Sequence record: NC_047923.1
Source of the DNA: Escherichia phage HZ2R8
Reading direction: 5' to 3' (one strand)
DNA: 39,482 nt
This document shows, piece after piece, positions 61-39,482 of the stretch (position 1 is the stretch's first letter; each line of letters opens with the position of its first letter). A program made the translations under genes and the position numbers. Below the pieces are notes generated by a model that was not told the origin of the DNA, did no database searches, and worked only from the letters and a program-made list of their open reading frames with translations.

Positions 61-264
61 ATGCTGTCTTTGGACTTCAATAATGAGTTAGTCAAGGCTG
101 CACCTATTGTTGGCACAGGTGTGGCTGATGGCGCTGCGAGGCTTTTCTTTGGGCTGAGTCTTAATGAGTGGTTCTATGTTGCCGCTATCGCCTACACAGT
201 GGTTCAGATTGGTGCCAAGGTAGTCGATAAGATGATTGACTGGAAGAAAGCTAATAAGGAGTGA
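61..264 (+). CDS. 17.5: Holin (class II, T7 gp17.5-like)
   Basis: 67-aa ORF; translation near-identical to T7 gp17.5 as I recall it; SD TAAGGAGG upstream; hydrophobic core. Confidence 0.9.
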   Translation: MLSLDFNNELVKAAPIVGTGVADGAARLFFGLSLNEWFYVAAIAYTVVQIGAKVVDKMIDWKKANKE

Positions 265-269
265 TGTGT

Positions 270-539
270 ATGGAAAAAGATAAGAGCCTTATCACGTTCT
301 TAGAGATGTTGGACACTGCGATGGCACAGCGTATGCTCGCTGACCTTTCGGACCCTGAGCGTCGGACTCCACAGCTCTACAACGCCATCAACAAACTGTT
401 AGACCGACATAAGTTCCAGATTGGTAAGTTGCAGCCGGATGTTCACATCTTGGGCGGCCTTGCTGGTGCTCTTGAAGAGTACAAAGAGAAAGTCGGGGAT
501 AACGGTCTTACGGATGACGATATTTACACTTTACAGTGA
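270..539 (+). CDS. 18: Terminase small subunit (gp18-like)
   Basis: ORF track 261..539 starts at GTG; ATG at 270 gives MEKDKSLITFLEML..., matching the T7 gp18 N-terminus; SD AAGGAG 8 nt upstream. Confidence 0.85.
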   Translation: MEKDKSLITFLEMLDTAMAQRMLADLSDPERRTPQLYNAINKLLDRHKFQIGKLQPDVHILGGLAGALEEYKEKVGDNGLTDDDIYTLQ

Positions 540-545
540 TATACT

Positions 546-570
546 CAAGGCCACTACCTATAGTGGTCTT
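546..570 (+). promoter_or_regulatory. RNase III-type processing hairpin (R18.5-like)
   Basis: CAAGGCCACT...AGTGGTCTTC imperfect hairpin of the family repeated through the genome. Confidence 0.5.
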
Positions 571-633
571 CATGGATGTCATTGTCTATACGAGATGCTC
601 CTACGTGAAATCTGAAAGTTAACGGGAGGCATT

Positions 634-1080
634 ATGCTACAATTTTTACGTAAGCTGGTCCCTTGGGTTCTCGCTGGGATGCTATTCGGATGGGGATGGC
701 AACTTGGGGCAGACTCAATGGACGCCAAGTGGAAACAGGAGGTACAGAATGAGTACGTTAAGAGAGTTGAGGCTACAGCGAGCACTCAAAGAGCACTCAA
801 TGAAATATCGGCTAAGTATCAGGAAGACCTTGCCGCGCTGGAAGGGAGCACTGATAGGATTATTTCTGATTTGCGTAGCGACAATAAGCGGTTGCTCGTC
901 AGAGTCAAAACTACCGGAACCTCCGATGGTAAGTGTGGATTCGAGCCTGATGGTCGAGCCGAACTTGACGACCGAGATGCTAAACGTATTCTCGCAGTGA
1001 CCCAAAGAGGTGACGCGTGGATTCGCGCTCTACAGGATACCATACGTGAACTACAGCATAAGCAGGAGGTTAAACAATGA
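634..1080 (+). CDS. 18.5: i-spanin (Rz-like, gp18.5)
   Basis: 148-aa ORF with N-terminal TM segment; T7 gp18.5-like; GGGAGG SD. Confidence 0.85.
749..1000 (+). CDS. 18.7: o-spanin (Rz1-like, gp18.7), embedded in +1 frame inside 18.5
   Basis: Internal Met of ORF 704..1000 gives MSTLRELRL...ISGC (lipobox-like Cys) and a proline-rich tail; classic embedded Rz1 arrangement. Confidence 0.7.
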   Translation: MSTLRELRLQRALKEHSMKYRLSIRKTLPRWKGALIGLFLICVATISGCSSESKLPEPPMVSVDSSLMVEPNLTTEMLNVFSQ

Positions 1081-2849
1081 GGAAAGGTGTAGCCGCTCAG
1101 TCCAATCGTAATGCGCTCGTTGTGGCGCAACTAAAGGGTGACTTCGTGGCGTTCCTGTTCGTCTTATGGAAGGCGTTAAACCTTCCGGTGCCCACTAAGT
1201 GTCAAATTGATATGGCTAAGGTACTGGCGAATGGGGACAACAAGAAGTTCATCCTACAGGCTTTCCGTGGTATCGGGAAGTCGTTCATCACTTGTGCGTT
1301 CGTTGTGTGGTCCTTATGGCGGGACCCTCAGTTGAAGATACTTATCGTATCAGCTTCTAAAGAACGTGCAGACGCTAACTCCATATTCATCAAGAACATC
1401 ATTGACCTGCTGCCGTTTCTCAGTGAGTTGAAGCCGAGACCCGGACAGCGTGACTCTGTGATTAGTTTTGATGTTGGTCCTGCTAGTCCTGACCACTCGC
1501 CTAGTGTGAAATCAGTAGGTATCACTGGTCAGTTAACTGGTAGTCGTGCTGATATTATCATCGCGGATGACGTTGAGATTCCGTCTAACAGTGCTACTAT
1601 GGGTGCCCGTGAGAAGCTATGGACTCTCGTTCAGGAGTTCGCTGCATTACTTAAACCACTGCCTACTTCTCGTGTTATCTATCTTGGTACGCCTCAAACT
1701 GAGATGACTCTCTATAAGGAACTTGAAGATAACCGTGGGTACACCACTATCATCTGGCCTGCTCTATATCCAAGGACTCGTGAGGAGAATCTCTACTATG
1801 CCCAACGTCTGGCACCAATGCTCCGTGCTGAATACGAGGAGAATCCTGAGGCGCTGGCTGGCACTCCTACAGACCCTGTTCGATTCGATAGGGATGACCT
1901 ACGTGAACGTGAGTTGGAATACGGTAAGGCTGGCTTTACGTTGCAGTTCATGCTTAACCCGAACCTGAGTGATGCCGAGAAGTACCCTCTGAGGCTCCGT
2001 GACGCTATCGTAGCGGCCTTAGACTTAGAGAAGGCACCGATGCATTACCAATGGCTTCCGAACCGTCAGAACATCATTGAGGACCTTCCTAACGTGGGCC
2101 TTAAGGGTGATGACCTTCACACATACCATGAGTGCTCGAATAACTCTGGTCAGTATCAACAGAAGATTCTGGTCATTGACCCAAGTGGTCGTGGTAAGGA
2201 CGAAACAGGTTACGCTGTGCTGTACACCTTGAACGGTTACATCTACCTAATGGAAGCTGGTGGTTTCCGTGATGGCTACTCAGATAAGACCCTTGAGCTA
2301 CTCGCTAAGAAAGCTAAGCAATGGGGAGTCCAGACGGTTGTCTACGAGAGTAACTTCGGTGACGGTATGTTTGGTAAGGTATTCAGTCCTATCCTTCTTA
2401 AACACCACAACTGCGCTATGGAAGAGATTCGTGCTCGTGGTATGAAGGAGATGCGCATTTGTGATACCCTTGAGCCAGTCATGCAGACTCATCGCCTTGT
2501 CATTCGAGATGAGGTCATTAGGGCAGACTATCAGTCCGCTCGTGATGTAGACGGTAAGCATGACGTTAAGTATTCACTGTTCTACCAGATGACTCGTATC
2601 ACTCGCGAGAAAGGTGCTCTGGCACACGATGACCGATTGGATGCCCTTGCGTTAGGCGTTGAGTATCTCCGTGAGTCCATGCAGTTGGATTCCGTTAAGG
2701 TAGAAGGAGAGGTGCTTGCTGACTTCCTTGAGGAACACATGATGCGTCCTACGGTCTCTGCTACACATATCATTGAGATGTCTGTAGGAGGAGTTGATGT
2801 GTACTCTGAGGACGATGAGGGATACGGTACGTCTTTCATTGAGTGGTGA
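1077..2849 (+). CDS. 19: Terminase large subunit (gp19)
   Basis: 590-aa ORF, near-identical to T7 gp19 across its length; Walker A-like GIGKS. Confidence 0.95.
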
Positions 2850-2886
2850 TTTATGAGGCCAAGGAAGGCCGCTTTAAGGAGGTAAT

Positions 2887-3330
2887 ATGATAAGCAAGAA
2901 GAAGTATGTTATCGATAAGGAGACTGGTTGCTGGAACTTTAGGGGATGTAAGACGAAGACTGGTTATGGTCGCATTCGTGTGAACGGAGTCCATTGGATG
3001 GCCCACAGGTATTCCCTGAGTTGTCATCTAGGCAGACCGATAGCTGACGGAATGGTTGTGATGCACCTATGTGATAATCCTTCATGTGTTAACCCTGAGC
3101 ACCTTAAGGAAGGGACTCAGAAGGAGAACATAGAGGACTGCATCTCAAAAGGTCGTGCAACTAAGGCCACAGGTAAACGTGATGCAACTAAGAGAGACCC
3201 TAGCGAGGAACGTAAGGCTATAGTGATTCGAAGATACCATAAAGGCTGGACCGCAACGTCCATAGCGAGATACCATAAGCTCTCTGTGGCGTGGGTAAAG
3301 AGGGTCATTGAGGATTACCTAAGTGATTGA
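2887..3330 (+). CDS. HNH endonuclease (HNH_3-type, putative homing endonuclease) with C-terminal HTH-like tail
   Basis: 147-aa ORF; motif VVMHLCDNPSCVNPEHL; clear paralog of the 22818..23210 ORF; AAGGAGG SD; sits between gene 19 and phiOR where I recall no gene in T7. Confidence 0.8.
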   Translation: MISKKKYVIDKETGCWNFRGCKTKTGYGRIRVNGVHWMAHRYSLSCHLGRPIADGMVVMHLCDNPSCVNPEHLKEGTQKENIEDCISKGRATKATGKRDATKRDPSEERKAIVIRRYHKGWTATSIARYHKLSVAWVKRVIEDYLSD

Positions 3331-3381
3331 TATTTGAAATTAGTGATACAGGTCTAAGTATATGATTACAGACCATTATTC

Positions 3382-3404
3382 TAATTCGACTCACTATAGG
3401 GAGA
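3382..3404 (+). promoter_or_regulatory. Phage RNAP promoter phiOR (variant TAATTCGACTCACTATAGGGAGA)
   Basis: 21/23 match to the T7 promoter consensus; upstream of gene 19.5. Confidence 0.75.
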
Positions 3405-3495
3405 AGCCTACCTAAAGATTACTATAAGACTTAAAGTTACCTATAAGGTAGGTTGTTATTATTGTTAATACAACCAACATAAAGGAGGGAGACTC

Positions 3496-3645
3496 ATGTT
3501 CCGCTTATTGTTGAACCTACTGCGGCATAGAGTCACCTATCGCTTTCTTGTGGTACTTTGTGCTGCCCTTGGGTACGCATCACTTAATGGACACCTCAGT
3601 TCACTGGAGTCTACCGTTTGCTCTTTACTCACTTGTAGTGATTAA
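3496..3645 (+). CDS. 19.5: gp19.5-like small protein
   Basis: 49-aa ORF (below ORF-track cutoff) MFRLLLNLLRHRVTYRFLVV...; AAGGAGGG SD; just downstream of phiOR. Confidence 0.6.
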   Translation: MFRLLLNLLRHRVTYRFLVVLCAALGYASLNGHLSSLESTVCSLLTCSD

Positions 3646-4420: not shown

Positions 4421-4450
4421 TTGACAACACGCAGTAACATGCAGTAAGAT
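4421..4450 (+). promoter_or_regulatory. Host sigma70 early promoter A2-like
   Basis: TTGACA - 18 bp - TAAGAT. Confidence 0.7.
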
Positions 4451-4526: not shown

Positions 4527-4555
4527 TTGACAACATGCAGTAAACACGGTACGAT
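4527..4555 (+). promoter_or_regulatory. Host sigma70 early promoter A3-like
   Basis: TTGACA - 17 bp - TACGAT. Confidence 0.7.
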
Positions 4556-4673: not shown

Positions 4674-4702
4674 TTGACAGCCTCCTTTAAAAGCTGTAAG
4701 AT
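4674..4702 (+). promoter_or_regulatory. Additional (fourth) host sigma70-type early promoter
   Basis: TTGACA - 17 bp - TAAGAT; lies in a ~147-bp segment bracketed by direct repeats GATGTACCAC (4553-4562 and 4700-4709). Confidence 0.55.
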
Positions 4703-4822
4703 GTACCACGAAATGACGGAACAGTGAGTCACCACACTGAAAGGTGATGCGGTCTAACGAAACCTGACCAAAGACGCTCTTTAACAATCTGGTAAACGGC
4801 TCTTGAGTGTACACACGTAGCG

Positions 4823-4858
4823 GATAACTCAAGGGTATCGCAAGGTGCCCTTTATGAT
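4823..4858 (+). promoter_or_regulatory. RNase III-type processing hairpin (R0.3-like) upstream of ocr
   Basis: ...ACTCAAGGGTATCGCAAGGTGCCCTTTATGAT... Confidence 0.5.
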
Positions 4859-4889
4859 ATCCACTAACAACACTATGAGGTAACACACA

Positions 4890-5252
4890 ATGGCTATGTC
4901 TAACATGACTTATAACAACGTTTTCGATCACGCTTACGAAATGCTGAAAGAAAACATCCGTTATGATGACATCCGTGACGCTGATGACCTGCACGATGCA
5001 GTGCATATGGCTGCTGATAATGCTGTTCCGCACTACTACAGCGACATTTTCAGCGTAATGGCAAGCGAGGGCATTGACCTTGAGTTTGAGGATTCTGGTC
5101 TGATGCCGGACACCAAGGACGTAATCCGTATCCTGCAAGCACGTATCTATGAGCAATTAACGATTGACCTTTGGGAAGATGCAGAAGACTTACTGAACGA
5201 GTATCTTGAGGAAGTCGAGGAGTCAGAAGAGTACGAGGAGGACGAAGAGTAA
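4890..5252 (+). CDS. 0.3: Ocr (gp0.3) DNA-mimic anti-restriction protein
   Basis: 120-aa highly acidic [25 protein letters not shown]... matching T7 Ocr; first gene after host promoters. Confidence 0.9.
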
Positions 5253-5407
5253 TGGCTAACAACACCACGCAATACGGTCTGACCGCTCAAACTGTACTGT
5301 TCTATAGCGACATGGTGCGCTGTGGTTTTGACTGGTCGCTCGCAATGGAACACCTTAAGGAACTGTACGAAAACAACAAGGCAATAGCCTTGGAGTCTGC
5401 TGAGTGA
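5252..5407 (+). CDS. 0.4: gp0.4-like (FtsZ inhibitor in T7)
   Basis: 51-aa [29 protein letters not shown]..., start overlaps the 0.3 stop; below ORF-track cutoff, hand-translated. Confidence 0.65.
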   Translation: MANNTTQYGLTAQTVLFYSDMVRCGFDWSLAMEHLKELYENNKAIALESAE

Positions 5408-5410
5408 TAG

Positions 5411-5445
5411 GCTCAAGGTCGCTCAATATGAGTGGCCTTTATGAT
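5411..5445 (+). promoter_or_regulatory. RNase III-type processing hairpin (R0.5-like), copy 1
   Basis: GCTCAAGGTCGCTCAATATGAGTGGCCTTTATGATTA. Confidence 0.55.
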
Positions 5446-5476
5446 TATCACTTTAACATGCAATAGGACTAACACC

Positions 5477-5677
5477 ATGAGTAAACTTCTGGCAACATCT
5501 AAAATCAAAGGTCAATGCACTGTAACACTGCGAGAGTATGATCACGGGGCAATGGGTAGCACCTACGTTGTGCGATACGGTAAACAAGTCACACATTGGG
5601 TGAACGAGGTTTTGGCGCAAGAAGAATACCAAGCCTGCGTGATACACCAAGCAACATGTGCAGGCTGGAATGACTGA
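5477..5677 (+). CDS. Hypothetical early protein (0.5 position)
   Basis: ORF track 5432..5677 starts at GTG inside a hairpin; ATG at 5477 more plausible; no recognisable motif. Confidence 0.4.
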   Translation: MSKLLATSKIKGQCTVTLREYDHGAMGSTYVVRYGKQVTHWVNEVLAQEEYQACVIHQATCAGWND

Positions 5678-5728
5678 TGGCGCTATTTGCACGCACTGGA
5701 TAATAGCCTTCTAGTCTACCCAGTGATA

Positions 5729-5765
5729 AACTCAAGGTCTCTCCTAGCGAGTGGCCTTTATGATT
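5729..5765 (+). promoter_or_regulatory. RNase III-type processing hairpin, copy 2 (duplicate of R0.5-like)
   Basis: AACTCAAGGTCTCTCCTAGCGAGTGGCCTTTATGATTA; same flanks as copy 1. Confidence 0.55.
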
Positions 5766-5788
5766 ATCATTCTGAAACAGGTGTACCT

Positions 5789-6232
5789 ATGTCACAACAA
5801 GCTAAAACTTGCATAGCGTGCGGTGAGTTCAAGCCGTTGACGCAATACTACAAGAATGCCTCATCCCTTGACGGTCACATTGGGACGTGTAAGGCATGCA
5901 AGGCCAAACAACAAAGGGAACGAAGGGCACGGAAAAGCAACGCAGAGAGATACACAAAGGAGGCAGCACGCCGCCGCACCAATCATCTGCGAGTAAACTA
6001 CGGGATAGAAGAGGAAACCTATCGCAAGATGTACGAAGAACAGAACGGGGTCTGTGCAATATGTAAGCACCCTGAGAGTATTGTGGGAAGGAGTCTCTGT
6101 GTGGACCATTCACACATTACGGGAGAAGTCCGTGGGCTTCTATGCTCCAATTGCAACAGAGGGATTGGCTTACTCAAGGACTCCCCAGAGTTGGTACGAA
6201 ACGCTTTTCACTACTTAACCGGTAAACTATAG
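5789..6232 (+). CDS. Endonuclease VII-like HNH nuclease (putative homing endonuclease)
   Basis: ATG at 5789 with AGGTG SD; motifs CxxC...CxxC, CVDHSH, GxVRGLLCSNCN typical of the phage endonuclease VII family. Confidence 0.75.
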   Translation: MSQQAKTCIACGEFKPLTQYYKNASSLDGHIGTCKACKAKQQRERRARKSNAERYTKEAARRRTNHLRVNYGIEEETYRKMYEEQNGVCAICKHPESIVGRSLCVDHSHITGEVRGLLCSNCNRGIGLLKDSPELVRNAFHYLTGKL

Positions 6233-6242
6233 GATGCACATT

Positions 6243-6377
6243 ATGAAACACTACGTTATGCCTATCCACACCAAGAACGGCGCTACAGTTTGCACACCTG
6301 ATGGCTTCGCAATGAAACAACGAATCGAACGCCTTAAGCGCGAACTACGCACCAATCGCAAGCTCAACAATATCTAA
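6243..6377 (+). CDS. 0.6: gp0.6-like small early protein
   Basis: 44-aa ORF MKHYVMPIHTKNGATVCTPDGFAMKQRIERLKREL..., resembling T7 gp0.6A as recalled. Confidence 0.5.
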   Translation: MKHYVMPIHTKNGATVCTPDGFAMKQRIERLKRELRTNRKLNNI

Positions 6378-6405
6378 TCACATTTAACACTGGAGAACGC
6401 ACAAA

Positions 6406-7485
6406 GTGAACGCTATCGACATCATGAACGCTATCGACGCAATCAAAGCACTGCCAATCTGTGAACTTGATAAGCGTCAAAGTATGCTCATTGATTTGCT
6501 GGTCGAAATGGTAAACAGCGAAACGTGTGACGGTGAGATAACCGAGTTGAATATGCCGCTCGAATGTCAATACTGGTGGACTACCTTAAAGTGCCTGACC
6601 GCTGACGCTGGCTTCACGATGCTCGGTAATGGTCACTTCTCCGCTGCATATAGTCACCCACTGCTGCCTAACAGAGTGATTAAGGTGGGCTTTAAGAAAG
6701 AGGATTCAGGCGCTGCGTATATCGCATTCTGCCGCATGTATCAGGGACGCGCTGGTATCCCTAACGTCTACGATGTTCAACGTCATGCAGGCTGTTACAC
6801 GGTGGTTCTCGATGCTCTGAATGACTGCGAACATTACGATAACGAGGATCATGTGAAGTATGCTACAATGGCAAGAGGCATTATTGATTATAACTCGGAT
6901 GTATATGACAAGCGTACTGGATGGGATGGGGAGTTCGTCGAGACGTGCAAGCTAATCCGCAAGTTCTTTGAGGGAATCGCATCGTTCGATATGCACAGCG
7001 GTAACATTATGTTCGACGATAATGATGTACCGTTCATTACTGACCCTGTGTCGTTCTCACAGAAGAAAGACGGTGGCGTGTTCAGCATGGACCCTGAGGA
7101 ACTCATCAAGGAAGTCGAGGAGGTCGCACGCCAGAAAGCAATAGACCGCGCCAAGGAGCGTAAAGCACGCCATGAGGGTCGCTTGCAAGCGCGTAGAGTC
7201 AAACGCATTAACCGTAAGGCACGTAAGGCACACCGCGCTAAGCGTGAAAGACTAACAGCACTATGGCGTATGAACGAGCGTCAAGAACGGCGTAACCATG
7301 AGGTAGCTGTAGATGCACTAGGAAGAACCAATAACGCTATGCTCTGGGTCAATATGCTCTCTGGGGGCTTTAAGGCGCTTGAGGAGCGAATCGCGCTGCG
7401 CTGGCGTAATGCTGACCGCATGGCTATCGCTAATGGTCTTCCGCTAAACATTGATAAGCAACTTGACGCAATGCTAATGGGCTGA
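6406..7485 (+). CDS. 0.7: Ser/Thr protein kinase and host shutoff protein (gp0.7)
   Basis: 359-aa ORF near-identical to T7 gp0.7; start is GTG at 6406 (alternative in-frame ATG at 6424). Confidence 0.9.
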
Positions 7486-7497
7486 TAGTCTTATCTT

Positions 7498-7520
7498 ACA
7501 GGTCATCTGCGGGTGGCCTG
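7498..7520 (+). promoter_or_regulatory. RNase III-type hairpin (R1-like) upstream of gene 1
   Basis: CAGGTCATCTGCGGGTGGCCTG. Confidence 0.5.
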
Positions 7521-7554
7521 AATAGATACGATTCCTGACCGAAAGAGGTACAAA

Positions 7555-10206
7555 ATGAGCACGATTAACATCGCTAAGAACGATTTCTCTGACATCGAAC
7601 TGGCTGCTATCCCGTTCAACACTCTGGCTGACCACTACGGTGAGCGCCTAGCTCGCGAGCAGTTGGCCCTTGAGCATGAGAGCTATGAAATGGGTGAAGC
7701 ACGTTTCCGCAAGATGTTTGAGCGTCAACTCAAGGCCGGTGAGGTTGCAGACAATGCAGCTGCTAAACCGCTGATTACTACTCTGCTGCCCAAGATGGTT
7801 ACACGCATCAACGACTGGTTTGAGGAAGTGAAAGCTAAGCGCGGCAAACGTCCAACCGCTTTCCAGTTCCTGCAAGGAATCAAGCCGGAATCTGTAGCGT
7901 ATATCACCATCAAGACTACCCTTGCTTGTCTGACGAGCGTTGACAATACAACCGTTCAGGCTGTAGCAAGCGCCATCGGACGGGCTATCGAGGAAGAAGC
8001 TCGCTTCGGTCGAATCCGTGACCTAGAAGCTAAGCACTTCAAGAAAAACGTTGAGGAACAACTAAACAAGCGCGTAGGGCACGTCTATAAGAAGGCATTC
8101 ATGCAGGTAGTCGAGGCTGATATGCTCTCTAAGGGTCTACTAGGTGGAGAGGCGTGGTCTTCATGGCACAAGGAAGACTCCATTCACGTTGGGGTGCGCT
8201 GCATCGAGATGCTCATTGAGTCCACCGGAATGGTTAGCCTGCACCGCCAAAATGCTGGCGTAGTGGGCCAAGACTCTGAGACTATCGAGCTGGCACACGA
8301 ATACGCTGAGGCTATCGCAACCCGCGCTGGGGCACTGGCTGGCATCTCTCCGATGTATCAGCCTTGCATAGTCCCTCCTAAGCCTTGGACTGGTGTAACT
8401 GGTGGTGGCTACTGGGCCAACGGTCGCCGCCCTCTGGTACTGGTACGCACTCACAGCAAGAAGGCACTGATGCGCTACGAAGATGTTTACATGCCTGAGG
8501 TATACAAGGCGATCAACATTGCGCAAAACACCGCTTGGAAAATCAACAAGAAAGTCCTAGCAGTTGCCAACGTGATAACCAAGTGGAAGCATTGTCCAGT
8601 CGAAGACATCCCTTCGATTGAACGTGAAGAACTCCCGATGAAACCGGAAGACATCGACACGAATCCAGAGGCGCTGACCGCTTGGAAACGTGCTGCTGCC
8701 GCTGTGTACCGTAAAGACAAGGCCCGTAAATCTCGCCGCATAAGCCTTGAGTTCATGCTTGAGCAAGCCAACAAGTTTGCTAACCGCAAGGCCATCTGGT
8801 TCCCTTACAACATGGACTGGCGTGGTCGTGTATACGCTGTGTCAATGTTTAATCCGCAAGGGAACGACATGACCAAAGGACTGCTGACACTGGCTAAAGG
8901 TAAACCAATCGGCAAGGAAGGTTTCTACTGGCTGAAAATCCACGGTGCTAACTGCGCGGGAGTTGATAAGGTTCCATTCCCTGAGCGCATCAAGTTCATT
9001 GAGGATAACCATGAGAACATCCTAGCGTGCGCTAAGTCCCCACTGGAAAACACTTGGTGGGCTGAGCAAGATTCTCCGTTCTGCTTCCTCGCGTTCTGCT
9101 TTGAGTACGCTGGGGTACAGCACCACGGCTTGAGCTACAACTGTTCACTGCCGCTGGCGTTCGATGGGTCTTGCTCTGGCATTCAGCACTTCTCCGCGAT
9201 GCTCCGCGATGAGGTAGGCGGTCGGGCTGTTAACCTGCTGCCTAGCGAAACCGTTCAGGACATCTACGGGATTGTTGCCAAGAAAGTTAACGAGATTCTG
9301 CAATCAGATGCAATCAACGGGACCGATAACGAAGTAGTTACCGTGACCGATGAGAACACTGGTGAAATCTCTGAGAAAATCAAGCTGGGTACTAAAGCAC
9401 TGGCTGGTCAATGGTTGGCCTACGGTGTAACTCGTAGCGTCACTAAACGTTCAGTCATGACGCTGGCCTATGGTTCCAAAGAGTTCGGCTTCCGCCAGCA
9501 AGTCCTTGAGGATACCATACAGCCAGCTATTGATTCCGGCAAAGGTCTGATGTTCACCCAACCTAATCAGGCTGCTGGGTATATGGCTAAGCTGATCTGG
9601 GAGTCAGTGAGCGTTACCGTAGTGGCTGCTGTAGAGGCCATGAACTGGCTTAAGTCTGCTGCTAAGTTGTTGGCTGCCGAGGTCAAAGATAAGAAGACTG
9701 GTGAGATTCTTCGCAAGCGTTGCGCGGTGTATTGGGTAACTCCTGATGGCTTCCCTGTGTGGCAAGAATACAAGAAGCCAATTCAGACTCGCTTGAACTT
9801 GATGTTCCTCGGTCAGTTCCGCTTACAGCCGACCATCAACACCAACAAGGACAGCGAGATTGATGCCCATAAGCAGGAGTCTGGTATCGCTCCTAACTTT
9901 GTACACAGCCAAGACGGTAGCCACCTACGTAAGACTGTAGTGTGGGCACATGAGAAGTACGGAATCGAATCTTTTGCACTGATTCATGACTCCTTCGGGA
10001 CCATTCCGGCTGACGCTGCCAACCTCTTCAAAGCTGTTCGTGAAACGATGGTTGACACCTACGAGTCCTGCGATGTGCTTGCTGACTTCTACAGCCAGTT
10101 CGCTGACCAGTTACATGAGTCCCAACTGGATAAAATGCCAGCACTTCCGGCTAAAGGTAACTTGAATTTACGAGACATCTTAGAGTCAGACTTCGCGTTT
10201 GCGTAA
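7555..10206 (+). CDS. 1: Single-subunit DNA-dependent RNA polymerase (T7 RNAP-like)
   Basis: 883-aa ORF, near-identical to T7 RNAP, same length. Confidence 0.97.
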   Translation: MSTINIAKNDFSDIELAAIPFNTLADHYGERLAREQLALEHESYEMGEARFRKMFERQLKAGEVADNAAAKPLITTLLPKMVTRINDWFEEVKAKRGKRPTAFQFLQGIKPESVAYITIKTTLACLTSVDNTTVQAVASAIGRAIEEEARFGRIRDLEAKHFKKNVEEQLNKRVGHVYKKAFMQVVEADMLSKGLLGGEAWSSWHKEDSIHVGVRCIEMLIESTGMVSLHRQNAGVVGQDSETIELAHEYAEAIATRAGALAGISPMYQPCIVPPKPWTGVTGGGYWANGRRPLVLVRTHSKKALMRYEDVYMPEVYKAINIAQNTAWKINKKVLAVANVITKWKHCPVEDIPSIEREELPMKPEDIDTNPEALTAWKRAAAAVYRKDKARKSRRISLEFMLEQANKFANRKAIWFPYNMDWRGRVYAVSMFNPQGNDMTKGLLTLAKGKPIGKEGFYWLKIHGANCAGVDKVPFPERIKFIEDNHENILACAKSPLENTWWAEQDSPFCFLAFCFEYAGVQHHGLSYNCSLPLAFDGSCSGIQHFSAMLRDEVGGRAVNLLPSETVQDIYGIVAKKVNEILQSDAINGTDNEVVTVTDENTGEISEKIKLGTKALAGQWLAYGVTRSVTKRSVMTLAYGSKEFGFRQQVLEDTIQPAIDSGKGLMFTQPNQAAGYMAKLIWESVSVTVVAAVEAMNWLKSAAKLLAAEVKDKKTGEILRKRCAVYWVTPDGFPVWQEYKKPIQTRLNLMFLGQFRLQPTINTNKDSEIDAHKQESGIAPNFVHSQDGSHLRKTVVWAHEKYGIESFALIHDSFGTIPADAANLFKAVRETMVDTYESCDVLADFYSQFADQLHESQLDKMPALPAKGNLNLRDILESDFAFA

Positions 10207-10521: not shown

Positions 10522-10779
10522 ATGGGACGTTTATACAGTGGGAACCTGAATGACTTCAAGGCTTCTTGCAACAGGCTCTACCAGTTGGACCTTGCTGTTA
10601 TAGTCGTTGAGCAGGAAGGTTCACCAAACATAAAGGCAACCATGTACCTTCGGATTGAAGACCGTACTGGTCGCATAGTTGCTCAGGAAGAGATTCACCA
10701 CTGCGATGAAGACGTCCTGTACTCTATGGCAACCGCTTGGCTGAACCGTATGTACGACCAGTTGAAGGACTGGAAGTAA
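10522..10779 (+). CDS. 1.2: gp1.2 (inhibitor of host dGTPase)
   Basis: ATG at 10522 gives 85 aa MGRLYSGNL...DQLKDWK, T7 gp1.2-like; ORF-track start 10438 is upstream and overlaps 1.1. Confidence 0.8.
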   Translation: MGRLYSGNLNDFKASCNRLYQLDLAVIVVEQEGSPNIKATMYLRIEDRTGRIVAQEEIHHCDEDVLYSMATAWLNRMYDQLKDWK

Positions 10780-10859: not shown

Positions 10860-11882
10860 ATGATGAACATTAAGACCAACCCATTTAAAGCAACGTCTTT
10901 CGTAGAGTCTGCCATTAAGAAAGCTCTGGACAACGCTGGGTATCTTATCGCTGACATTAAGTATGATGGTGTACGTGGTAACATCTGCGTAGACAATACT
11001 GCTAACAGTTGCTGGCTCTCTCGTGTATCTAAAACGATTCCGGCACTGGAGCACCTAAACGGATTTGATGCGCGCTGGAAGCGTCTTCTGAATGATGACC
11101 GTTGCTTCTACAAAGATGGCTTTATGTTGGATGGAGAACTCATGGTCAAGGGAGTAGACTTCAACACGGGGTCCGGCATACTGCGTACCAAGTGGACCGA
11201 CACTAAGAACCAAGAGTTCCACGAAGAGTTATTCGTTGAACCAGTCCGTAAGAAAGACAAGGTTCCCTTTAAGCTGCACACTGGGCATCTGTGCGTCAAA
11301 CTGTATGCTATCCTCCCGCTTCACGTTGTAGAGTCTGGAGAAGACTGCGACATCATGACGCTGCTCATGCAGGAACACGTTAAGAACATGCTGCCTCTGC
11401 TACAGGAATACTTCCCTGAAATCGAATGGCAAGCGGCTGAGTCTTACGAGGTTTACGACATGGTGGAACTACAGCAACTGTATGAGAAGAAGCGTGAAGA
11501 AGGCCATGAGGGTCTCATTGTGAAAGACCCCATGGGAATCTATAAGCGAGGTAAGAAGTCCGGCTGGTGGAAGATGAAACCTGAGAACGAGGCTGACGGC
11601 ATTATCCAAGGTCTGGTATGGGGTACGGAGGGTCTGGCTAACGAAGGCAAAGTGATCGGCTTTGAGGTGCTTCTTGAGAGTGGTCGTGTAGTAAACGCCA
11701 CAAACATCTCTCGCGCCTTAATGGACGAGTTCACCAATACCGTAAACATTGAAGGTCGTGACTTCTACAACGGACACGCTTGCCAGATTAGCTACATGGA
11801 GGAAACACCAGACGGCTCTCTGCGTCACCCATCGTTCGTGTGTTTCAGAGGAACTGAGGACAATCCTCAAGAGAAAATTTAA
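10860..11882 (+). CDS. 1.3: ATP-dependent DNA ligase (gp1.3)
   Basis: 340-aa ORF; MMNIKTNPFKA... and the adenylation motif KYDGVRG. Confidence 0.92.
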   Translation: MMNIKTNPFKATSFVESAIKKALDNAGYLIADIKYDGVRGNICVDNTANSCWLSRVSKTIPALEHLNGFDARWKRLLNDDRCFYKDGFMLDGELMVKGVDFNTGSGILRTKWTDTKNQEFHEELFVEPVRKKDKVPFKLHTGHLCVKLYAILPLHVVESGEDCDIMTLLMQEHVKNMLPLLQEYFPEIEWQAAESYEVYDMVELQQLYEKKREEGHEGLIVKDPMGIYKRGKKSGWWKMKPENEADGIIQGLVWGTEGLANEGKVIGFEVLLESGRVVNATNISRALMDEFTNTVNIEGRDFYNGHACQISYMEETPDGSLRHPSFVCFRGTEDNPQEKI

Positions 11883-11889
11883 TCACAAT

Positions 11890-11920
11890 GGCTCACCGAA
11901 AGGTGGGCCTTTCTGCGTTT
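11890..11920 (+). terminator. Early intrinsic terminator (TE-like) after the ligase gene
   Basis: GGCTCACC-GAAA-GGTGGGCC (8-bp stem with one G-U pair, GAAA loop) followed by TTTCTGCGTTT. Confidence 0.7.
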
Positions 11921-11942
11921 AATACGACTCACTATAGGAGAT
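11920..11942 (+). promoter_or_regulatory. Phage RNAP promoter phi1.5
   Basis: TAATACGACTCACTATAGGAGAT. Confidence 0.85.
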
Positions 11943-11949
11943 ACACATA

Positions 11950-12064: not shown

Positions 12065-12325
12065 ATGTTCCGACTTCATTTCAACAAAAGTCTTAAGAAT
12101 TTCACTGTTCGCCGTGCTGACCGTTCAATCGTATGTGCGAGCGAGCGCCGAGCTAAGTTACCTCTTATTGGTGACACAGTTCCTTTGGCACCGAGCGTCC
12201 ACATCATTATCACCCGTGGTGACTTTGAGAAAGCAATAGACAAGAAACGTCCGGTTCTTAGTGTGGCAGTGACCCGCTTCCCGTTCGTCCGTCTGTTACT
12301 AAAACGTATCAAGGAGGTGTTCTGA
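12065..12325 (+). CDS. 1.6: gp1.6-like protein
   Basis: Internal ATG of ORF 11993..12325, directly after phi1.6; 86 aa [21 protein letters not shown]... Confidence 0.7.
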
Positions 12326-12853
12326 TGGGATGCATAGCGTGCTTAGAGAAAGATGACCGTTATCCACATACCTGTAATAAAGGAGCTAACGATATGACCG
12401 AACGTGAACAAGAGATTATCATTAAGTTGATAGACAATAACGAAGGTCGCCCAGATGATTTGAATGGCTGCGGACTTCTCTGCTCTAATGTCCCTTGTCA
12501 CCTCTGCCCCGCAAATAACGATCAAAAGATAACCTTAGGTGAAATCCGAGCGATGGACCCACGTAAACCTAAACTGGATAAACCAGAGGTAACTCCAACA
12601 GATGACCAGTCTTCCGCTGAGTCAATCGAAGGTGTCACTAAGCCATCCCATTACATGCTGTTTGACGACATTGAGGCTATTGAAGTGATTGCCCGTTCGA
12701 TGACCAGTGAGCAGTTCAAAGGGTACTGCTTCGGGAACGTACTTAAATATCGCCTACGTGCTGGTAAGAAATCCGAACTGGCTTACTTAGAGAAGGACAT
12801 GGCGAAAGCTGGGTTCTACGGTGAACTGTACGAGAAACATAAGGACAAGTGCT

Positions 12854-12864
<11 letters not shown>
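12325..12864 (+). CDS. 1.7: gp1.7 nucleotide kinase-like protein
   Basis: 179-aa ORF with Cys-rich N-terminus, T7 gp1.7-like. Confidence 0.85.
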
Positions 12865-13169
<305 letters not shown>

Positions 13170-13172
<3 letters not shown>

Positions 13173-16897: not shown

Positions 16898-17167
16898 ATG
16901 TCAAACGTAGCTGAAACTATCCGTCTATCCGATACCGCCGACCAGTGGAACCGCCGAGTTCACATCAACGTTCGTAACGGAAAGGCTACTATGGTTTACC
17001 GTTGGAAGGACTCTAAGTCCTCTAAGAATCACACTCAGCGTATGACGTTGACGGACGAGCAAGCACTGCGTCTGGTCAATGCGCTTACCAAAGCTGCCGT
17101 GACAGCAATCCATGAATCTGGTCGCGTCAATGAAGCTATGGCTATCCTCGACAAGATTGATAGCTAA
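16898..17167 (+). CDS. 4.5: gp4.5-like protein
   Basis: ORF-track start 16871 is TTG; ATG at 16898 with AGGAGA SD gives 89 aa MSNVAETIRLSD... Confidence 0.7.
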   Translation: MSNVAETIRLSDTADQWNRRVHINVRNGKATMVYRWKDSKSSKNHTQRMTLTDEQALRLVNALTKAAVTAIHESGRVNEAMAILDKIDS

Positions 17168-19813: not shown

Positions 19814-20110
19814 ATGGCTATCACTAAGAAATTTAAAGTGTCCTTCGACGTTACCCTTAAGCTGGATAGTGAGACCGAAGAAATGATGCGCGAAAAGATT
19901 TTGGACCTTGCACATCGTGCTGGTGATGGTAAGGAGATTGCGCCTATGGACCGAGAGATGCTCGTTCAGGCCCTTACTCACGGCCCAGACGGTGCTGCTG
20001 CTTTTGTTGTACGTCAAGGACTCCGCAATGCCATCAAGGAGATGTTCGAAGAGATGGATGATGCGTCCTTGTTCAAAGCATCCCCAGCCACTGTACGGGA
20101 GGTGTTCTGA
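19814..20110 (+). CDS. 5.5: gp5.5 (H-NS-binding protein in T7)
   Basis: 98-aa ORF matching T7 gp5.5 as recalled. Confidence 0.8.
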   Translation: MAITKKFKVSFDVTLKLDSETEEMMREKILDLAHRAGDGKEIAPMDREMLVQALTHGPDGAAAFVVRQGLRNAIKEMFEEMDDASLFKASPATVREVF

Positions 20111-20319
20111 TGTCTGACTATCTGAAAGTGCTGCAAGCAATCAAAAGTTGCCCTAAGACTTTCCAGTCCAACTATGTACGGAACAATGCGAGCCTCGTAG
20201 CGGAGGCCGCTTCCCGTGGTCACATCTCGTGCCTGACTACGAGTGGGCGCAACGGCGGTGCTTGGGAAATTACCGCTTCCGGTACTCGCTTTCTGAAACG
20301 AATGGGAGGGTGTGTCTGA
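20110..20319 (+). CDS. 5.7: gp5.7-like protein
   Basis: 69-aa ORF; start overlaps the 5.5 stop. Confidence 0.75.
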   Translation: MSDYLKVLQAIKSCPKTFQSNYVRNNASLVAEAASRGHISCLTTSGRNGGAWEITASGTRFLKRMGGCV

Positions 20320-20477
20320 TGGTTCGTGACACTGTAACAATTCCTCGTGATGCGTGGAACGATATGCAGGGCTACATCGACTCTCTGGAACGTGAGAACG
20401 ATAGCCTTAAGAATCAACTGATGGAGGCTGACGAATACGTGGCTGAACTAGAGGAGAAACTTAATGGCACTCCTTGA
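20319..20477 (+). CDS. 5.9: gp5.9 (RecBCD inhibitor in T7)
   Basis: Internal ATG of ORF 20229..20477 gives 52 aa MVRDTVTIPRDAWNDMQGYIDSLERENDSLKNQLMEADEYVAELEEKLNGTP. Confidence 0.7.
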   Translation: MVRDTVTIPRDAWNDMQGYIDSLERENDSLKNQLMEADEYVAELEEKLNGTP

Positions 20478-22817: not shown

Positions 22818-23210
22818 ATGGAGAATTGCATCGAGTGGACTAAAGGTACTAACCAGAAGGGTTACGGTAGGAAGTGGGTTGATGGTAAGTTGGTTTCTGC
22901 GCATCGCCACGCCTATGAAGAAGTACACGGTCCTATTCCAGATGGTCTTGTAGTGATGCATCTCTGTGACAATCCTAGATGTTATAACGTGGAGCACTTG
23001 ACTCTTGGGACTCATGCAGACAACTCAGATGACAAGGTGCGTAAAGGTAGACAAGCAAAAGGTGAAACTCTAAGTAATAAACTTACTGAGACAGATGTTT
23101 TGACCATTCGCGCCTTAGACCTACCACATGCTGAGATAGCCAAGATATACGGTGTTAGTCAATCCACCATAACTCGCATAATTAGACGCGACACATGGAG
23201 GCATATCTAA
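22818..23210 (+). CDS. 7.7: HNH endonuclease (gp7.7 position; HNH_3-type with C-terminal HTH)
   Basis: 130-aa ORF; motif VVMHLCDNPRCYNVEHL; paralog of 2887..3330; stop overlaps the gene 8 start. Confidence 0.8.
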   Translation: MENCIEWTKGTNQKGYGRKWVDGKLVSAHRHAYEEVHGPIPDGLVVMHLCDNPRCYNVEHLTLGTHADNSDDKVRKGRQAKGETLSNKLTETDVLTIRALDLPHAEIAKIYGVSQSTITRIIRRDTWRHI

Positions 23211-37598: not shown

Positions 37599-39434
37599 AT
37601 GGCTAACGTAATTAAGACCGTTTTGACTTACCAGTTAGATGGTTCGAATCGAGATTTTAACATCCCGTTTGAATATCTAGCCCGTAAGTTTGTAGTGGTA
37701 ACTCTCATTGGTGTTGACCGTAAGGTCCTCACACTCAATACAGATTATCGCTTTGCTACGCGTACTACTATCTCGCTAACCAAATCTTGGGGACCTGCGG
37801 ATGGTTACACTACCATTGAGCTGCGCCGAGTAACCTCCACGACTGACCGTCTGGTTGACTTTACGGATGGCTCGATCCTGCGTGCGTATGACCTTAACGT
37901 GGCTCAGATTCAGACTATGCATGTGGCAGAAGAGGCCCGTGACTTAACTGCTGATACTATTGGTGTCAACAATGATGGTCACTTGGATGCCCGTGGTCGT
38001 CGTATCGTGAACCTAGCGAACGCTGTGGATGACCGTGACGCTGTTCCGCTTGGTCAACTAAAGACGATGAACCAGAACTCTTGGCAAGCTCGCAATGAGA
38101 CTCTACAGTTCCGTAATGACGCTGAGGGTTTCCGTAATGACGCTGAGCGGTTCATGAACTCTGCTAGTGCTTCGTCTGATTCGGCTAACTCCGCTAAGGA
38201 TGCGGCCCATCAATCCAACGTGGAAGCGTATCAACATCGCCTTGCTGCGGAAACAGCTAAGACCGCTGCTCAGCAGTCAAACGTAGAGTCGTACACTTGG
38301 TCTAATAAGTCCAAGGAGTACGCCGAGTCTGCCTCTATGGATGCTGCGAAAGCTGAGCAACAAGCTAACCGCGCTAAGACCGAGGCTGACAAACTAGCTA
38401 ATACCAACGCGTTTGCTGCTACCTTGAAGACAGTTCAGGGTGGGACCGTTGAGTGGCACAAAGAGTGGGGACTCAAGGCTAACAGCTTCGATGCACTCAG
38501 TGATATTACTGCCCTAAACGGTACGATGAACTCTATGGACGTTCGAGCGTCTCGTAACGTAGCAGTAGCTGGTGTGACTTACCCTCAGGGGGGCATTCAG
38601 CAGACTATCGGTACTAACCAGTGGAACCATCTTGTACGGCTGCATATTAACGGTAGACCAAGCTGGGTGGGGGATAAACAAGGACTCCACTTAGCATGGA
38701 ACGAGAATGGAAGTGGTGAGGCAGACTTAATCTGCAACCAAGGTGCTGGGGCTGGAGGCTTCCTCTTTAGGACTGTGAACGACAAGGACAACGTAGAGAT
38801 TGGTCGTGTCACCTTTACTGGTGCTGGTGCTGTGCACGCTAACCACTTCCAAGTCGGCCATAGTCGCATGGAGTCCAACGGGAACGTAGTGGCTGGTAGC
38901 GTACTGTATGCTGGGAATGGTTCCAGTCAAATGGCTCCAGACGGGAACGTCCATGGTCCTCTTTGGGGCGGCTGGCTGTCCAGCTACCTGAACAATAGGT
39001 ACCTTTTCGCTAAGCCGCCTGGAGGGGTTCAGTTATTTACCTCTCGCGGTGGGGACTACCTTGAGGGCGTTGTGGATAACCAAGCCGTTGGGTTCCGGTG
39101 GTTCCTATCAGACAGAAGGCTTAAGGAAAACATAAATGTTCTACGCTCAGCCGACGATATGCTAAATATCATCCGGTCGTACATCCCAGTCACGTACAAG
39201 TATAAGGATTCGGAGTATACTGATAACCGTGGGAGAACTATTACTGTTACTGGTAAGAAGTCTCGTGCAGGCTTCATTACTCAGGACTTGATTAGAATCT
39301 GGCCCGAAGCAGTGGATGTTCTATCGGACGGTATGCAGTCCCCAGACCCTAACCAAATCATCGGTGGACTAATGCTTCTTGTTAAGAACCTAGATGAGCG
39401 GGTTCAGGAGCTAGAGAAGAAGAATAACGTTTAA
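37599..39434 (+). CDS. 17: Tail fiber protein (gp17), mosaic with C-terminal intramolecular chaperone (S74-like) domain
   Basis: 611-aa ORF; N-terminal ~160 aa match the T7 gp17 tail-attachment region; the distal part does not match what I recall of T7; C-terminal ~108 aa from SDRRLKENI carry the chaperone-of-endosialidase signature (YKYKD, GFITQD, PEAV, LxxLxERVQELE). Confidence 0.9.
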   Translation: MANVIKTVLTYQLDGSNRDFNIPFEYLARKFVVVTLIGVDRKVLTLNTDYRFATRTTISLTKSWGPADGYTTIELRRVTSTTDRLVDFTDGSILRAYDLNVAQIQTMHVAEEARDLTADTIGVNNDGHLDARGRRIVNLANAVDDRDAVPLGQLKTMNQNSWQARNETLQFRNDAEGFRNDAERFMNSASASSDSANSAKDAAHQSNVEAYQHRLAAETAKTAAQQSNVESYTWSNKSKEYAESASMDAAKAEQQANRAKTEADKLANTNAFAATLKTVQGGTVEWHKEWGLKANSFDALSDITALNGTMNSMDVRASRNVAVAGVTYPQGGIQQTIGTNQWNHLVRLHINGRPSWVGDKQGLHLAWNENGSGEADLICNQGAGAGGFLFRTVNDKDNVEIGRVTFTGAGAVHANHFQVGHSRMESNGNVVAGSVLYAGNGSSQMAPDGNVHGPLWGGWLSSYLNNRYLFAKPPGGVQLFTSRGGDYLEGVVDNQAVGFRWFLSDRRLKENINVLRSADDMLNIIRSYIPVTYKYKDSEYTDNRGRTITVTGKKSRAGFITQDLIRIWPEAVDVLSDGMQSPDPNQIIGGLMLLVKNLDERVQELEKKNNV

Positions 39435-39482
39435 GGATGACACCTGATTGAGACCAAGGATGGTCTTTAATAAGGAGGAGAC
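39423..39482. repeat. 60-bp exact duplicate of window positions 1-60 (circular-permutation / assembly overlap)
   Basis: AATAACGTTTAAGGATGACACCTGATTGAGACCAAGGATGGTCTTTAATAAGGAGGAGAC present at both window ends; contains the gene 17 stop and the gene 17.5 SD. Confidence 0.9.

Follow-up and report, generated by a model that had tools for sequence, protein, structure and literature searches.

Does Escherichia phage HZ2R8 (NC_047923.1) retain, uninterrupted, the early genes that disarm the host of a T7-like phage? An initial annotation held that this module is intact and named frameshifts or truncations, visible on alignment, as the findings that would speak against it. The window analyzed here, the whole stretch of 39,482 nucleotides, represents a T7-like genome (Teseptimavirus) in circularly permuted form, with approximately 91%–94% identity to GenBank phages. 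The interval at issue, positions 4890–7485, runs exactly from the start codon of Ocr to the stop codon of gp0.7; the features listed below with coordinates lie on the plus strand. We compared 56 of 56 T7 proteins with the window by tblastn and then globally aligned the named proteins to T7. The nine proteins named in the annotation each align with their T7 counterparts at full length and collinearly (E values from 1e-26 to 0; 53%–100% identity; within 3 aa of the T7 length), and alignment to T7 (NC_001604) revealed no frameshift, internal stop or truncation in any of their genes. Gene order is that of T7, and the families of the named genes are supported by Pfam and PHROG profiles. The host-takeover genes named there are present, complete and collinear with those of T7, and their signals are conserved. 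Hence, 4890–7485 is almost certainly the early transcription unit (class I) of a T7-like phage; added to six class II genes, it supplies the host-takeover set that is standard for T7. HZ2R8 is an ordinary T7-like phage in which the known host-disarming genes are all present and uninterrupted; the result is correct and unsurprising.

The layout of promoters, RNase III hairpins and early terminator is shared with T7, as are the promoters specific for the T7 RNA polymerase, for which the window contains 12 matches where 0 would be expected. Upstream of the interval are three predicted strong sigma-70 promoters at the positions of T7 A1 (4421–4450, TTGACA-18-TAAGAT), A2 (4527–4555, TTGACA-17-TACGAT) and A3 (4674–4702, TTGACA-17-TAAGAT), each matching the consensus at 10 of 12 positions. 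A1 falls in a stretch collinear with T7 1–750, within which all three T7 promoters lie, and A2 with the T7 early promoter region; A3 aligns with T7 ~712–750, a stretch within which T7 A3 is annotated. Because a simple sigma-70 promoter scan of the window showed no enrichment over shuffles (9 found, 9.1 expected), the A1–A3 assignment rests on the 10/12 scores, the clustering of the sites and T7 homology. Four hairpins with z scores of -2.5 to -4.5 occupy T7 RNase III site positions. The hairpin 5' of gene 0.3 (R0.3 position, 4818–4866; -20.7 kcal/mol, z -4.5) folds as stem, internal loop and stem, and its position and T7 homology make it a putative RNase III site. A second, collinear with T7, lies 5' of gene 1 (R1 position, 7487–7533; -24.4 kcal/mol, z -3.2); the remaining two are discussed below. 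The early terminator TE is predicted at 11890–11920, after the ligase gene (1.3), as a GC hairpin and T-rich tail (GGCTCACCGAAAGGTGGGCC then TTTCTGCGTTT). A generic terminator scan missed this element, and direct alignment to T7 TE (~7588) located it. Searching the window against Rfam at the gathering threshold and scanning it for tRNAs gave no matches.

The first gene of the early transcript, 3' of these promoters and of the R0.3-position hairpin, encodes Ocr (gene 0.3, 4890–5252, 120 aa), a homolog of the T7 DNA-mimic anti-restriction protein whose function has been published (PMC7064336). Along its whole length it shares 95% identity with T7 Ocr (E 9e-75 by tblastn, followed by global alignment), and it matches PF08684 across the entire profile (positions 1–101 of 101, E 2.7e-63), PDB 1s7z_A over residues 1–120 (E 8.5e-70) and its PHROG family. 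The annotation had credited Ocr with an extended acidic C-terminus, quoting a tail sequence that agrees with ours. The tail is indeed longer and acidic, but the extension amounts to a three-residue ESE insert, the sole length difference from the 117-aa T7 protein, and is common among relatives: EG1, ESh6 and WX1 carry the insert too, with 120 aa matched. Charge is similarly close to that of T7 Ocr (36 D+E versus 6 K+R, pI 4.05, compared with 34 versus 6, pI 4.05). As in T7, the stop codon of Ocr and the ATG of gene 0.4 (5252–5407) overlap. The 51-aa gene 0.4 product, a homolog of the T7 FtsZ inhibitor, aligns with T7 gp0.4 over 51 of 51 residues (84% identity, E 2e-26), matches phrog_7202 (E 1e-33) and does not differ from the EG1, ESh6 and HZP2 versions (100% identity). 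Pfam returned no match for gp0.4, gp0.45, gp0.6 or gp0.7, so we base these four assignments on T7 homology and PHROGs.

Between genes 0.4 and 0.6, the phage is mosaic: a gp0.45-type open reading frame (ORF) and a mobile gene of the endonuclease VII (EndoVII)/HNH type replace T7 0.5, each behind a hairpin of the R0.5 type. The first hairpin (5402–5453) aligns to T7 1409–1481 and folds with -24.6 kcal/mol (z -4.1). Behind it lies the gp0.45-type ORF (5477–5677, 66 aa), an early gene of the T3/phiYeO3-12 type that matches phrog_6500 (E 1e-44) and occurs in 148 phage records; tblastn with T7 proteins found no T7 homolog. Its Shine-Dalgarno sequence, ATAGGACTAacaccATG, is identical to one tabulated for a gp0.45 homolog (PMC4925675). 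The segment that follows (5702–5774) comprises a second, decayed copy of the gene 0.4 terminus (its last ~25 nt) and the second hairpin (5721–5774), and gives a second blastn match to T7 1409–1476 at 87%. This hairpin is weaker than the first (-16.3 kcal/mol, z -2.5), and both retain the conserved upper stem.

Directly downstream of this second copy, in the place that gp0.5 occupies in relatives, is a gene for a probable homing endonuclease of the EndoVII/HNH (His-Me finger) type (5789–6232, 147 aa; PF02945, E 4e-24; phrog_2633, E 8e-40). The protein is 96% identical to one from HZP2 and 75% identical to one from WX1, both encoded in the same early region. Longer ORFs at 5432–5677 (81 aa) and 5687–6232 (181 aa) were rejected as genes: the RNase III hairpins cover their 5' parts, and ATGs with suitable Shine-Dalgarno spacing are found at 5477 and 5789. 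Most likely, phages recombined with one another at the repeated hairpin to give this mosaic. The stretch from 0.4 to 0.7 differs in each of the seven phages that we compared, and the order 0.45-EndoVII-0.6 occurs in none of the relatives examined, each of which has its own cassette content there. The initial annotation passed over three ORFs inside the interval: this gene, the gp0.45-type ORF and gp0.6.

Gene 0.6 (6234–6377), a homolog of the T7 MreB inhibitor gene, is the one other early gene of T7 for which a host target has been published; inhibition of FtsZ by gp0.4 and of MreB by gp0.6 has been described (PMC5624674). The ATG at 6234 yields a protein of 47 aa, and a better-spaced ATG at 6243 one of 44 aa. 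Residues 1–45 align with the 53-aa T7 gp0.6A at 89% identity, the last 8 residues are missing, and phrog_8393 is matched at positions 2–45 of 111 (E 7e-28). The 0.6B extension is absent, as alignment to T7 found no counterpart of T7 1770–2021 in the window. EG1 and ESh6 have the same short form ending in RKLNNI, and CICC 80001 carries the short form too.

The interval closes with gene 0.7 (6406–7485, 359 aa), whose predicted product is a Ser/Thr protein kinase with a C-terminal region for host-transcription shut-off. The annotation placed a gp0.4 homolog and this kinase in the early region, and both are there at full length. Alignment to T7 gp0.7 is gap-free over 359 of 359 residues at 86% identity, spanning the kinase and shut-off parts, and phrog_2828 is matched over positions 1–359 (E 7.5e-168). 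Translation starts at GTG, 10 nt after a GGAG, whereas T7 uses ATG. The strings GNGHF, VIKV, DMHSGN and TDP occur at residues 74, 91, 195 and 211, the same positions as in T7. We read them as kinase-like motifs: a glycine-rich segment, the lysine of VIKV, a sequence resembling a catalytic loop, and TDP. A sequence search found no PDB match for gp0.7. We also considered a frameshifted or truncated kinase of the kind present in HZP2, and rejected it given the gap-free 359-aa alignment.

Gene 1 (7555–10206) encodes a T7-type RNA polymerase that is 97.5% identical to the T7 enzyme over 883 of 883 residues and is predicted to transcribe the class II anti-host genes. Homologs of gp1.2, gp2, gp4.5, gp5.5, gp5.7 and gp5.9 do follow further on, as annotated, each of full length relative to T7. 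Four of the six are close to T7. The host RNA polymerase inhibitor homolog gp2 (12978–13172, 64 aa; PF16857, E 4e-28) is 97% identical, differing at residues 3 and 4 only, and retains R56 and R58, which are important residues of gp2. The Lon protease inhibitor homolog gp4.5 (16898–17167, 89 aa) is 98% identical and matches PF17574 at full length (E 1.9e-61). The counterpart of gp5.7, an inhibitor of sigma-S RNA polymerase (20110–20319, 69 aa), is 100% identical, and that of the RecBCD inhibitor gp5.9 (20319–20477, 52 aa) is 92% identical (phrog_9014, E 1e-39). Inhibition of RecBCD by gp5.9 and of Lon by gp4.5 (PMC10286901) and the action of gp5.7 on sigma-S (bioRxiv 10.1101/262279) have been published. 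The remaining two are other alleles. The homolog of the dGTPase (Dgt) inhibitor gp1.2 (10522–10779, 85 aa) is 58% identical to T7 (E 2e-29) and belongs to a 13a/EG1-type allele (91%–96% identical to the 13a, EG1 and vB_Yep_9 versions). The homolog of the H-NS-binding protein gp5.5 (19814–20110, 98 aa versus 99 in T7) is 53% identical to T7 (E 9e-28) and of T3 type (86% identical to the T3 and T7M versions). Genes 5.5, 5.7, 5.9 and 6 follow one another with overlapping stop/start junctions, as in T7.

The annotation further claimed that HZ2R8 carries the full known T7 set of host-takeover and anti-restriction functions. This applies to the genes with a known host target, gp0.6 included in its short form, but not to T7 as a whole: tblastn with T7 proteins found no counterpart in the window of 0.5, 0.6B, 1.4, 2.8, 3.8, 4.1 or 5.3. 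For none of these seven did our literature search turn up a recorded role in host takeover. In the PhageMaP preprint, however, g1.4-g2 and g2.8 appear as candidate triggers of the hhe defence.

Every biochemical activity in the scheme that follows is predicted from homology to T7. While the left end of the genome is entering the cell, host RNA polymerase would start at the sigma-70 promoters at 4421, 4527 and 4674, producing a polycistronic early transcript that would be cut at the intergenic RNase III hairpins and end at TE (~11890–11920). Ocr, a highly acidic DNA mimic, would block type I restriction-modification and BREX, while gp0.4 would block FtsZ and gp0.6 MreB. The kinase gp0.7 may phosphorylate host proteins, its C-terminal third shutting off host transcription. 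Phage RNA polymerase would then read the T7-type promoters for gp1.2, gp2, gp4.5, gp5.5, gp5.7 and gp5.9, which are expected to inhibit the Dgt dGTPase (gp1.2), host RNA polymerase (gp2 and gp5.7), Lon (gp4.5) and RecBCD (gp5.9) and to bind H-NS (gp5.5).

The set might nevertheless be complete in name only, if the divergent gp1.2 and gp5.5 and the short gp0.6 no longer act on the T7 targets or now act on others, for instance by adaptation to another enterobacterial host. Such a phage would not command every function that T7 has against E. coli. The low identity of gp1.2 and gp5.5 to T7 lends this idea some weight, and because these alleles differ from those of T7, an activity equal to that of the T7 proteins is something we infer. 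The nearest gp1.2 alleles moreover come from phages of Yersinia, Salmonella and Serratia, and the nearest gp5.5 alleles from T3-type phages; the C-terminal part of the tail fibre is unlike that of T7, pointing to another receptor or host; and gp0.6 is shorter than T7 0.6A. Yet each divergent protein aligns with its Pfam family over the whole profile (gp1.2, PF10922, positions 1–85 of 85, E 2.9e-30; gp5.5, PF11247, positions 1–99 of 99, E 5.7e-28), and the same alleles are present in E. coli phages 13a, EG1, T3, T7M and Bas102/104. The gp1.2 N-terminus, MGRLYSGNL, is identical to that of T7 and retains R3 and L4, two residues that insert into the active site of Dgt (PMC9478638). Conservation of the short gp0.6 in EG1, ESh6 and CICC 80001 argues for selection on that form. 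On balance, we regard a shift of targets as unlikely.

It is still less probable, indeed very unlikely, that the module is not meaningfully intact, with insertion of the EndoVII gene having removed gp0.5 and damaged neighboring early genes or processing signals, as in HZP2. Both phages lack gp0.5, which T7, EG1, ESh6 and CICC 80001 possess, and both carry the closely related (96%) EndoVII gene directly 5' of 0.6. The same element adjoins a deletion in HZP2 (NC_048164) that takes most of 0.6 and 0.7, so that only 19 aa remain of gp0.6 and the C-terminal 67 aa of gp0.7, and the second R0.5 copy of HZ2R8 is the weaker one. Downstream of the element in HZ2R8, however, gp0.6 and gp0.7 are complete; the conserved upper stem survives in both hairpins; and the absent gp0.5 is a 47-aa hydrophobic peptide for which our literature search found no part in host takeover.

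These results matter little beyond annotation, which is their chief use. Against type I restriction, BREX, RecBCD and Lon-dependent toxin-antitoxin systems, HZ2R8 should act as T7 does. It would also make Ocr, gp5.9, gp1.2 and gp5.7 and should therefore set off defences that sense these proteins; published cases are PARIS (Ocr), retrons (RecBCD inhibition), PifA and ApeA (both gp1.2) and RADAR2 (gp5.7). Both expectations bear on any use of the phage in host-range prediction or therapy. The mosaic 0.4–0.7 region provides a small example, of a known type, of T7-like phages shuffling accessory early genes and homing endonucleases.

The nearest GenBank relatives are EG1, ESh6, CICC 80001 and vB_YenP_WW2/WX1, with 88%–96% nucleotide identity over the early region. 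The gp0.45 gene is also present in EG1 and CICC 80001, and WX1 has an EndoVII gene in its early region. HZP2 has 94% nucleotide identity to HZ2R8 over 24.5 kb; it lacks gp0.45, and its EndoVII gene directly follows the R0.5 hairpin of gene 0.4. The 66-aa gp0.45-type ORF and gp5.5 are held in common with phages of the T3/phiYeO3-12 type. The phiYeO3-12-like phage described in PMC4925675 has an S-adenosylmethionine hydrolase as gene 0.3, whereas HZ2R8 has a T7-type Ocr followed by gp0.4. Outside the early region, HZ2R8 differs from T7 in an HNH gene inserted after gene 19, which HZP2 has at the same place, and in gp1.7, which begins at T7 residue 19.

The early anti-host module of Escherichia phage HZ2R8 extends exactly from the start codon of Ocr (4890) to the stop codon of gp0.7 (7485). 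Global alignments to the T7 counterparts (NC_001604) gave 95% identity for Ocr (gene 0.3, 4890-5252; 120 aa, versus 117 in T7), 84% for gp0.4 (5252-5407; 51 aa) and 86%, with no gaps, for the gp0.7 kinase (6406-7485; 359 aa). Among the later proteins, gp2 (12978-13172; 64 aa), gp4.5 (16898-17167; 89 aa), gp5.7 (20110-20319; 69 aa) and gp5.9 (20319-20477; 52 aa) are 97%, 98%, 100% and 92% identical to T7, and gp1.2 (10522-10779; 85 aa) and gp5.5 (19814-20110; 98 aa, versus 99) are 58% and 53% identical. Searches of the window with the T7 proteins by tblastn returned E-values of 1e-26 to 0, far beyond chance. Matches over the full Pfam profile (Ocr, PF08684, 2.7e-63; gp1.2, PF10922; gp2, PF16857; gp4.5, PF17574; gp5.5, PF11247), PHROG assignments for the kinase (phrog_2828, 7.5e-168), gp5.9 (phrog_9014), gp0.4 and gp5.7, and a match of Ocr to the solved T7 Ocr chain (1s7z, E 8.5e-70) agree with these identifications. 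The initial annotation had read these nine genes as present and intact; since alignment to T7 detected no frameshift, internal stop or truncation in any of them, that reading stands.

Closer comparison qualifies several details. The acidic Ocr tail described initially as extended is as quoted, but it is only three residues (ESE) longer than that of T7, the sole length change in the protein. The insert also occurs in the relatives EG1 and ESh6, and WX1 Ocr aligns across all 120 aa; the tail is nothing special, being common in relatives. gp2 departs from T7 at residues 3 and 4 only, and the kinase-like strings of gp0.7 occupy positions identical to those in T7. Gene 0.7 begins with GTG here versus ATG in T7, and a 12-nt direct repeat lies within its opening codons (6406-6441, AACGCTATCGAC ... 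AACGCTATCGAC); the true start of the gene is uncertain by six codons because the ESh6 annotators chose a downstream ATG. Since gp1.2 is a 13a/EG1-type allele and gp5.5 a T3-type allele, the biochemistry of the T7 proteins is extrapolated to both. For gp1.2, the extrapolation is helped by an N-terminal segment identical to that of T7, MGRLYSGNL, whose residues R3 and L4 reach into the active site of Dgt (PMC9478638).

The broader initial claim, that the phage carries the full known T7 set of host-takeover and anti-restriction functions, is supported for genes with published host targets, all of which are present by homology: Ocr, 0.4, 0.6, 0.7, 1.2, 2, 4.5, 5.5, 5.7, 5.9, gp3 and gp6. Ocr acts on restriction and BREX and also binds RNA polymerase (PMC7064336); gp0.4 targets FtsZ and gp0.6 MreB (PMC5624674), gp1.2 targets Dgt (PMC9478638), and gp4.5 and gp5.9 target Lon and RecBCD (PMC10286901). 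A host target has been published for gp2 and gp5.7 (bioRxiv 10.1101/262279), and gp5.5 is linked to H-NS (T7 record note). The host-DNA nucleases gp3 and gp6 are kept at 87% and 98.7% identity by tblastn. The claim is limited by the gp1.2 and gp5.5 alleles and by six T7 genes without a counterpart: among 56 T7 proteins searched, gp0.5, gp1.4, gp3.8, gp4.1 and gp5.3 had no tblastn match in the window, and gp2.8 was matched only by other HNH genes elsewhere in it; a separate check confirmed the gaps. No host-takeover function was found on record for any of the six. gp0.5 is a 47-aa hydrophobic peptide whose literature matches concern engineering or mutation lists; 2.8 and 3.8 are annotated as endonuclease genes in the T7 record, and the phiYeO3-12 homolog of 5.3 is given as a homing endonuclease (PMC4925675). 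g1.4-g2 and g2.8 are listed among possible hhe defence triggers (PhageMaP preprint), which is not a host-takeover role.

Signals for expressing the early and class II (later) anti-host genes are in place. Three sigma-70 promoter matches (4421, 4527 and 4674; each 10/12) fall in sequence that is collinear with the A1-A3 promoter region of T7. Hairpins at 4818-4866, 5402-5453, 5721-5774 and 7487-7533 (folding z -2.5 to -4.5) have the stem, internal loop and stem of T7 RNase III sites, and the early terminator TE is kept after the ligase gene (11890-11920, aligned to T7). The phage RNA polymerase is 97.5% identical to the T7 enzyme, and the window contains 12 T7-promoter matches versus 0 expected. 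Transcript initiation, RNase III cleavage and termination at TE would occur at these elements. By analogy with T7, host RNA polymerase would start at the three promoters and transcribe genes 0.3 to 1.3, with RNase III separating the messages. The first protein to act would be Ocr, countering restriction and BREX; gp0.4 and gp0.6 would freeze division and elongation, gp0.7 would phosphorylate host proteins and shut off host transcription, and the phage polymerase would afterwards express gp1.2, gp2, gp4.5, gp5.5, gp5.7 and gp5.9. TE is directly followed by a T7 RNA polymerase promoter, TAATACGACTCACTATAGGAGA, at the phi1.5 position (11890-11945), because gene 1.4 is deleted.

Comparison of the left 3.2 kb of T7 with the window by blastn revealed three differences in the interval that the initial annotation had not described. 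T7 1482-1631 (gene 0.5) and 1770-2021 (the 0.6A end and 0.6B extension) have no counterpart in the window; owing to the latter, gp0.6 (6234-6377) is only 47 aa, or 44 aa from a better-spaced ATG at 6243, and ends in RKLNNI, as in EG1 and ESh6. T7 1409-1481, which holds the final 25 nt of gene 0.4 and the R0.5 hairpin, is duplicated (5380-5455, with a decayed copy at 5702-5769, or to 5774 with its hairpin). The two copies are followed by different accessory genes, the first by a gp0.45-type ORF and the second by a 147-aa endonuclease VII/HNH gene (EndoVII, 5789-6232; PF02945, 4e-24) that lies where relatives and T7 have gene 0.5 and whose product is 96% identical to that of HZP2 (NC_048164) and 75% to that of WX1. 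To judge from this arrangement, the duplication resembles a joint left where two phage lineages recombined, best explained if a 0.4-R0.5-0.45 phage resembling CICC 80001 recombined with a 0.4-R0.5-EndoVII phage resembling HZP2.

Seven phages compared have seven different gene contents between 0.4 and 0.7: 0.5 and 0.6A/B in T7; 0.5 and 0.6 in ESh6; 0.45, 0.5 and 0.6 in CICC 80001; orf95, 0.45, 0.5 and 0.6 in EG1; orf95, 0.6 and EndoVII in WX1; 0.45, EndoVII and 0.6 here; and, in HZP2, EndoVII followed by a deletion after which 19 aa of gp0.6 and the C-terminal 67 aa of gp0.7 remain. Whereas the 96%-identical EndoVII gene of HZP2 adjoins this loss of most of 0.6 and 0.7, both genes are kept in HZ2R8. 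An intact 0.6-0.7 region is therefore not guaranteed in the clade, giving the claim of intactness some content, though little.

The 66-aa ORF (5477-5677; phrog_6500, 1e-44) is, by homology, of the gp0.45 type of T3/phiYeO3-12-like phages, and its Shine-Dalgarno sequence, ATAGGACTAacaccATG, equals the one that PMC4925675 tabulates for a gp0.45 homolog. It occurs in 148 records, from phages of Klebsiella, Escherichia, Yersinia and Salmonella. The family is a narrow one, with 19 clusters whose identity across the aligned part is never below 67%. The best AlphaFold model (pLDDT 83.7; the other four, 60-67) has four strands and a helix; Foldseek found no significant match in the PDB, and the BFVD matches were all small phage proteins that are themselves uncharacterised. 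A role in DNA binding, as a small early protein, is no more than a lead.

ORF listing and tblastn with the 56 annotated T7 proteins describe a circularly permuted T7-like podovirus genome, with genes 17.5-19.5 at 61-3645, a left end that homology with T7 position 1 places at about 3885, the early region starting at about 4400 and gene 17 at 37599-39434. An exact 60-bp repeat at the window ends (1-60 = 39423-39482; unique length 39,422 bp) is an overlap, an artefact of assembly or circularisation. Its closest relatives in GenBank belong to the Teseptimaviruses: the early region is 88-96% identical to EG1, CICC 80001, ESh6 and vB_YenP_WW2/WX1, and 24.5 kb outside it are 91-94% identical to WW2, HZP2 and EG1. 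The anti-host gene set is of the textbook T7 type, and the phage, although new, is an ordinary representative of its genus.

Other departures from T7 lie outside the module. A 147-aa HNH endonuclease gene (2887-3330; phrog_6254, E 3e-60) is inserted between genes 19 and 19.5, where T7 has none and HZP2 has an HNH gene; of the T7 endonuclease-type genes, the window lacks 2.8, 3.8 and 5.3 and keeps 7.7 (22818-23210, 71%). The tail fibre gp17 (37599-39434) has 611 aa versus 553 in T7. Its alignment to the T7 fibre is confined to T7 residues 1-479 (49.5% identity, 70 gaps), the receptor-binding C-terminal part being unrelated, and the phage probably differs from T7 in receptor or host range. The ligase (10860-11882) has 340 aa versus 359, with 19 gap positions in the alignment, and the gp1.7 nucleotide kinase (12325-12864) has 179 aa versus 196, its start aligning to T7 position 19.
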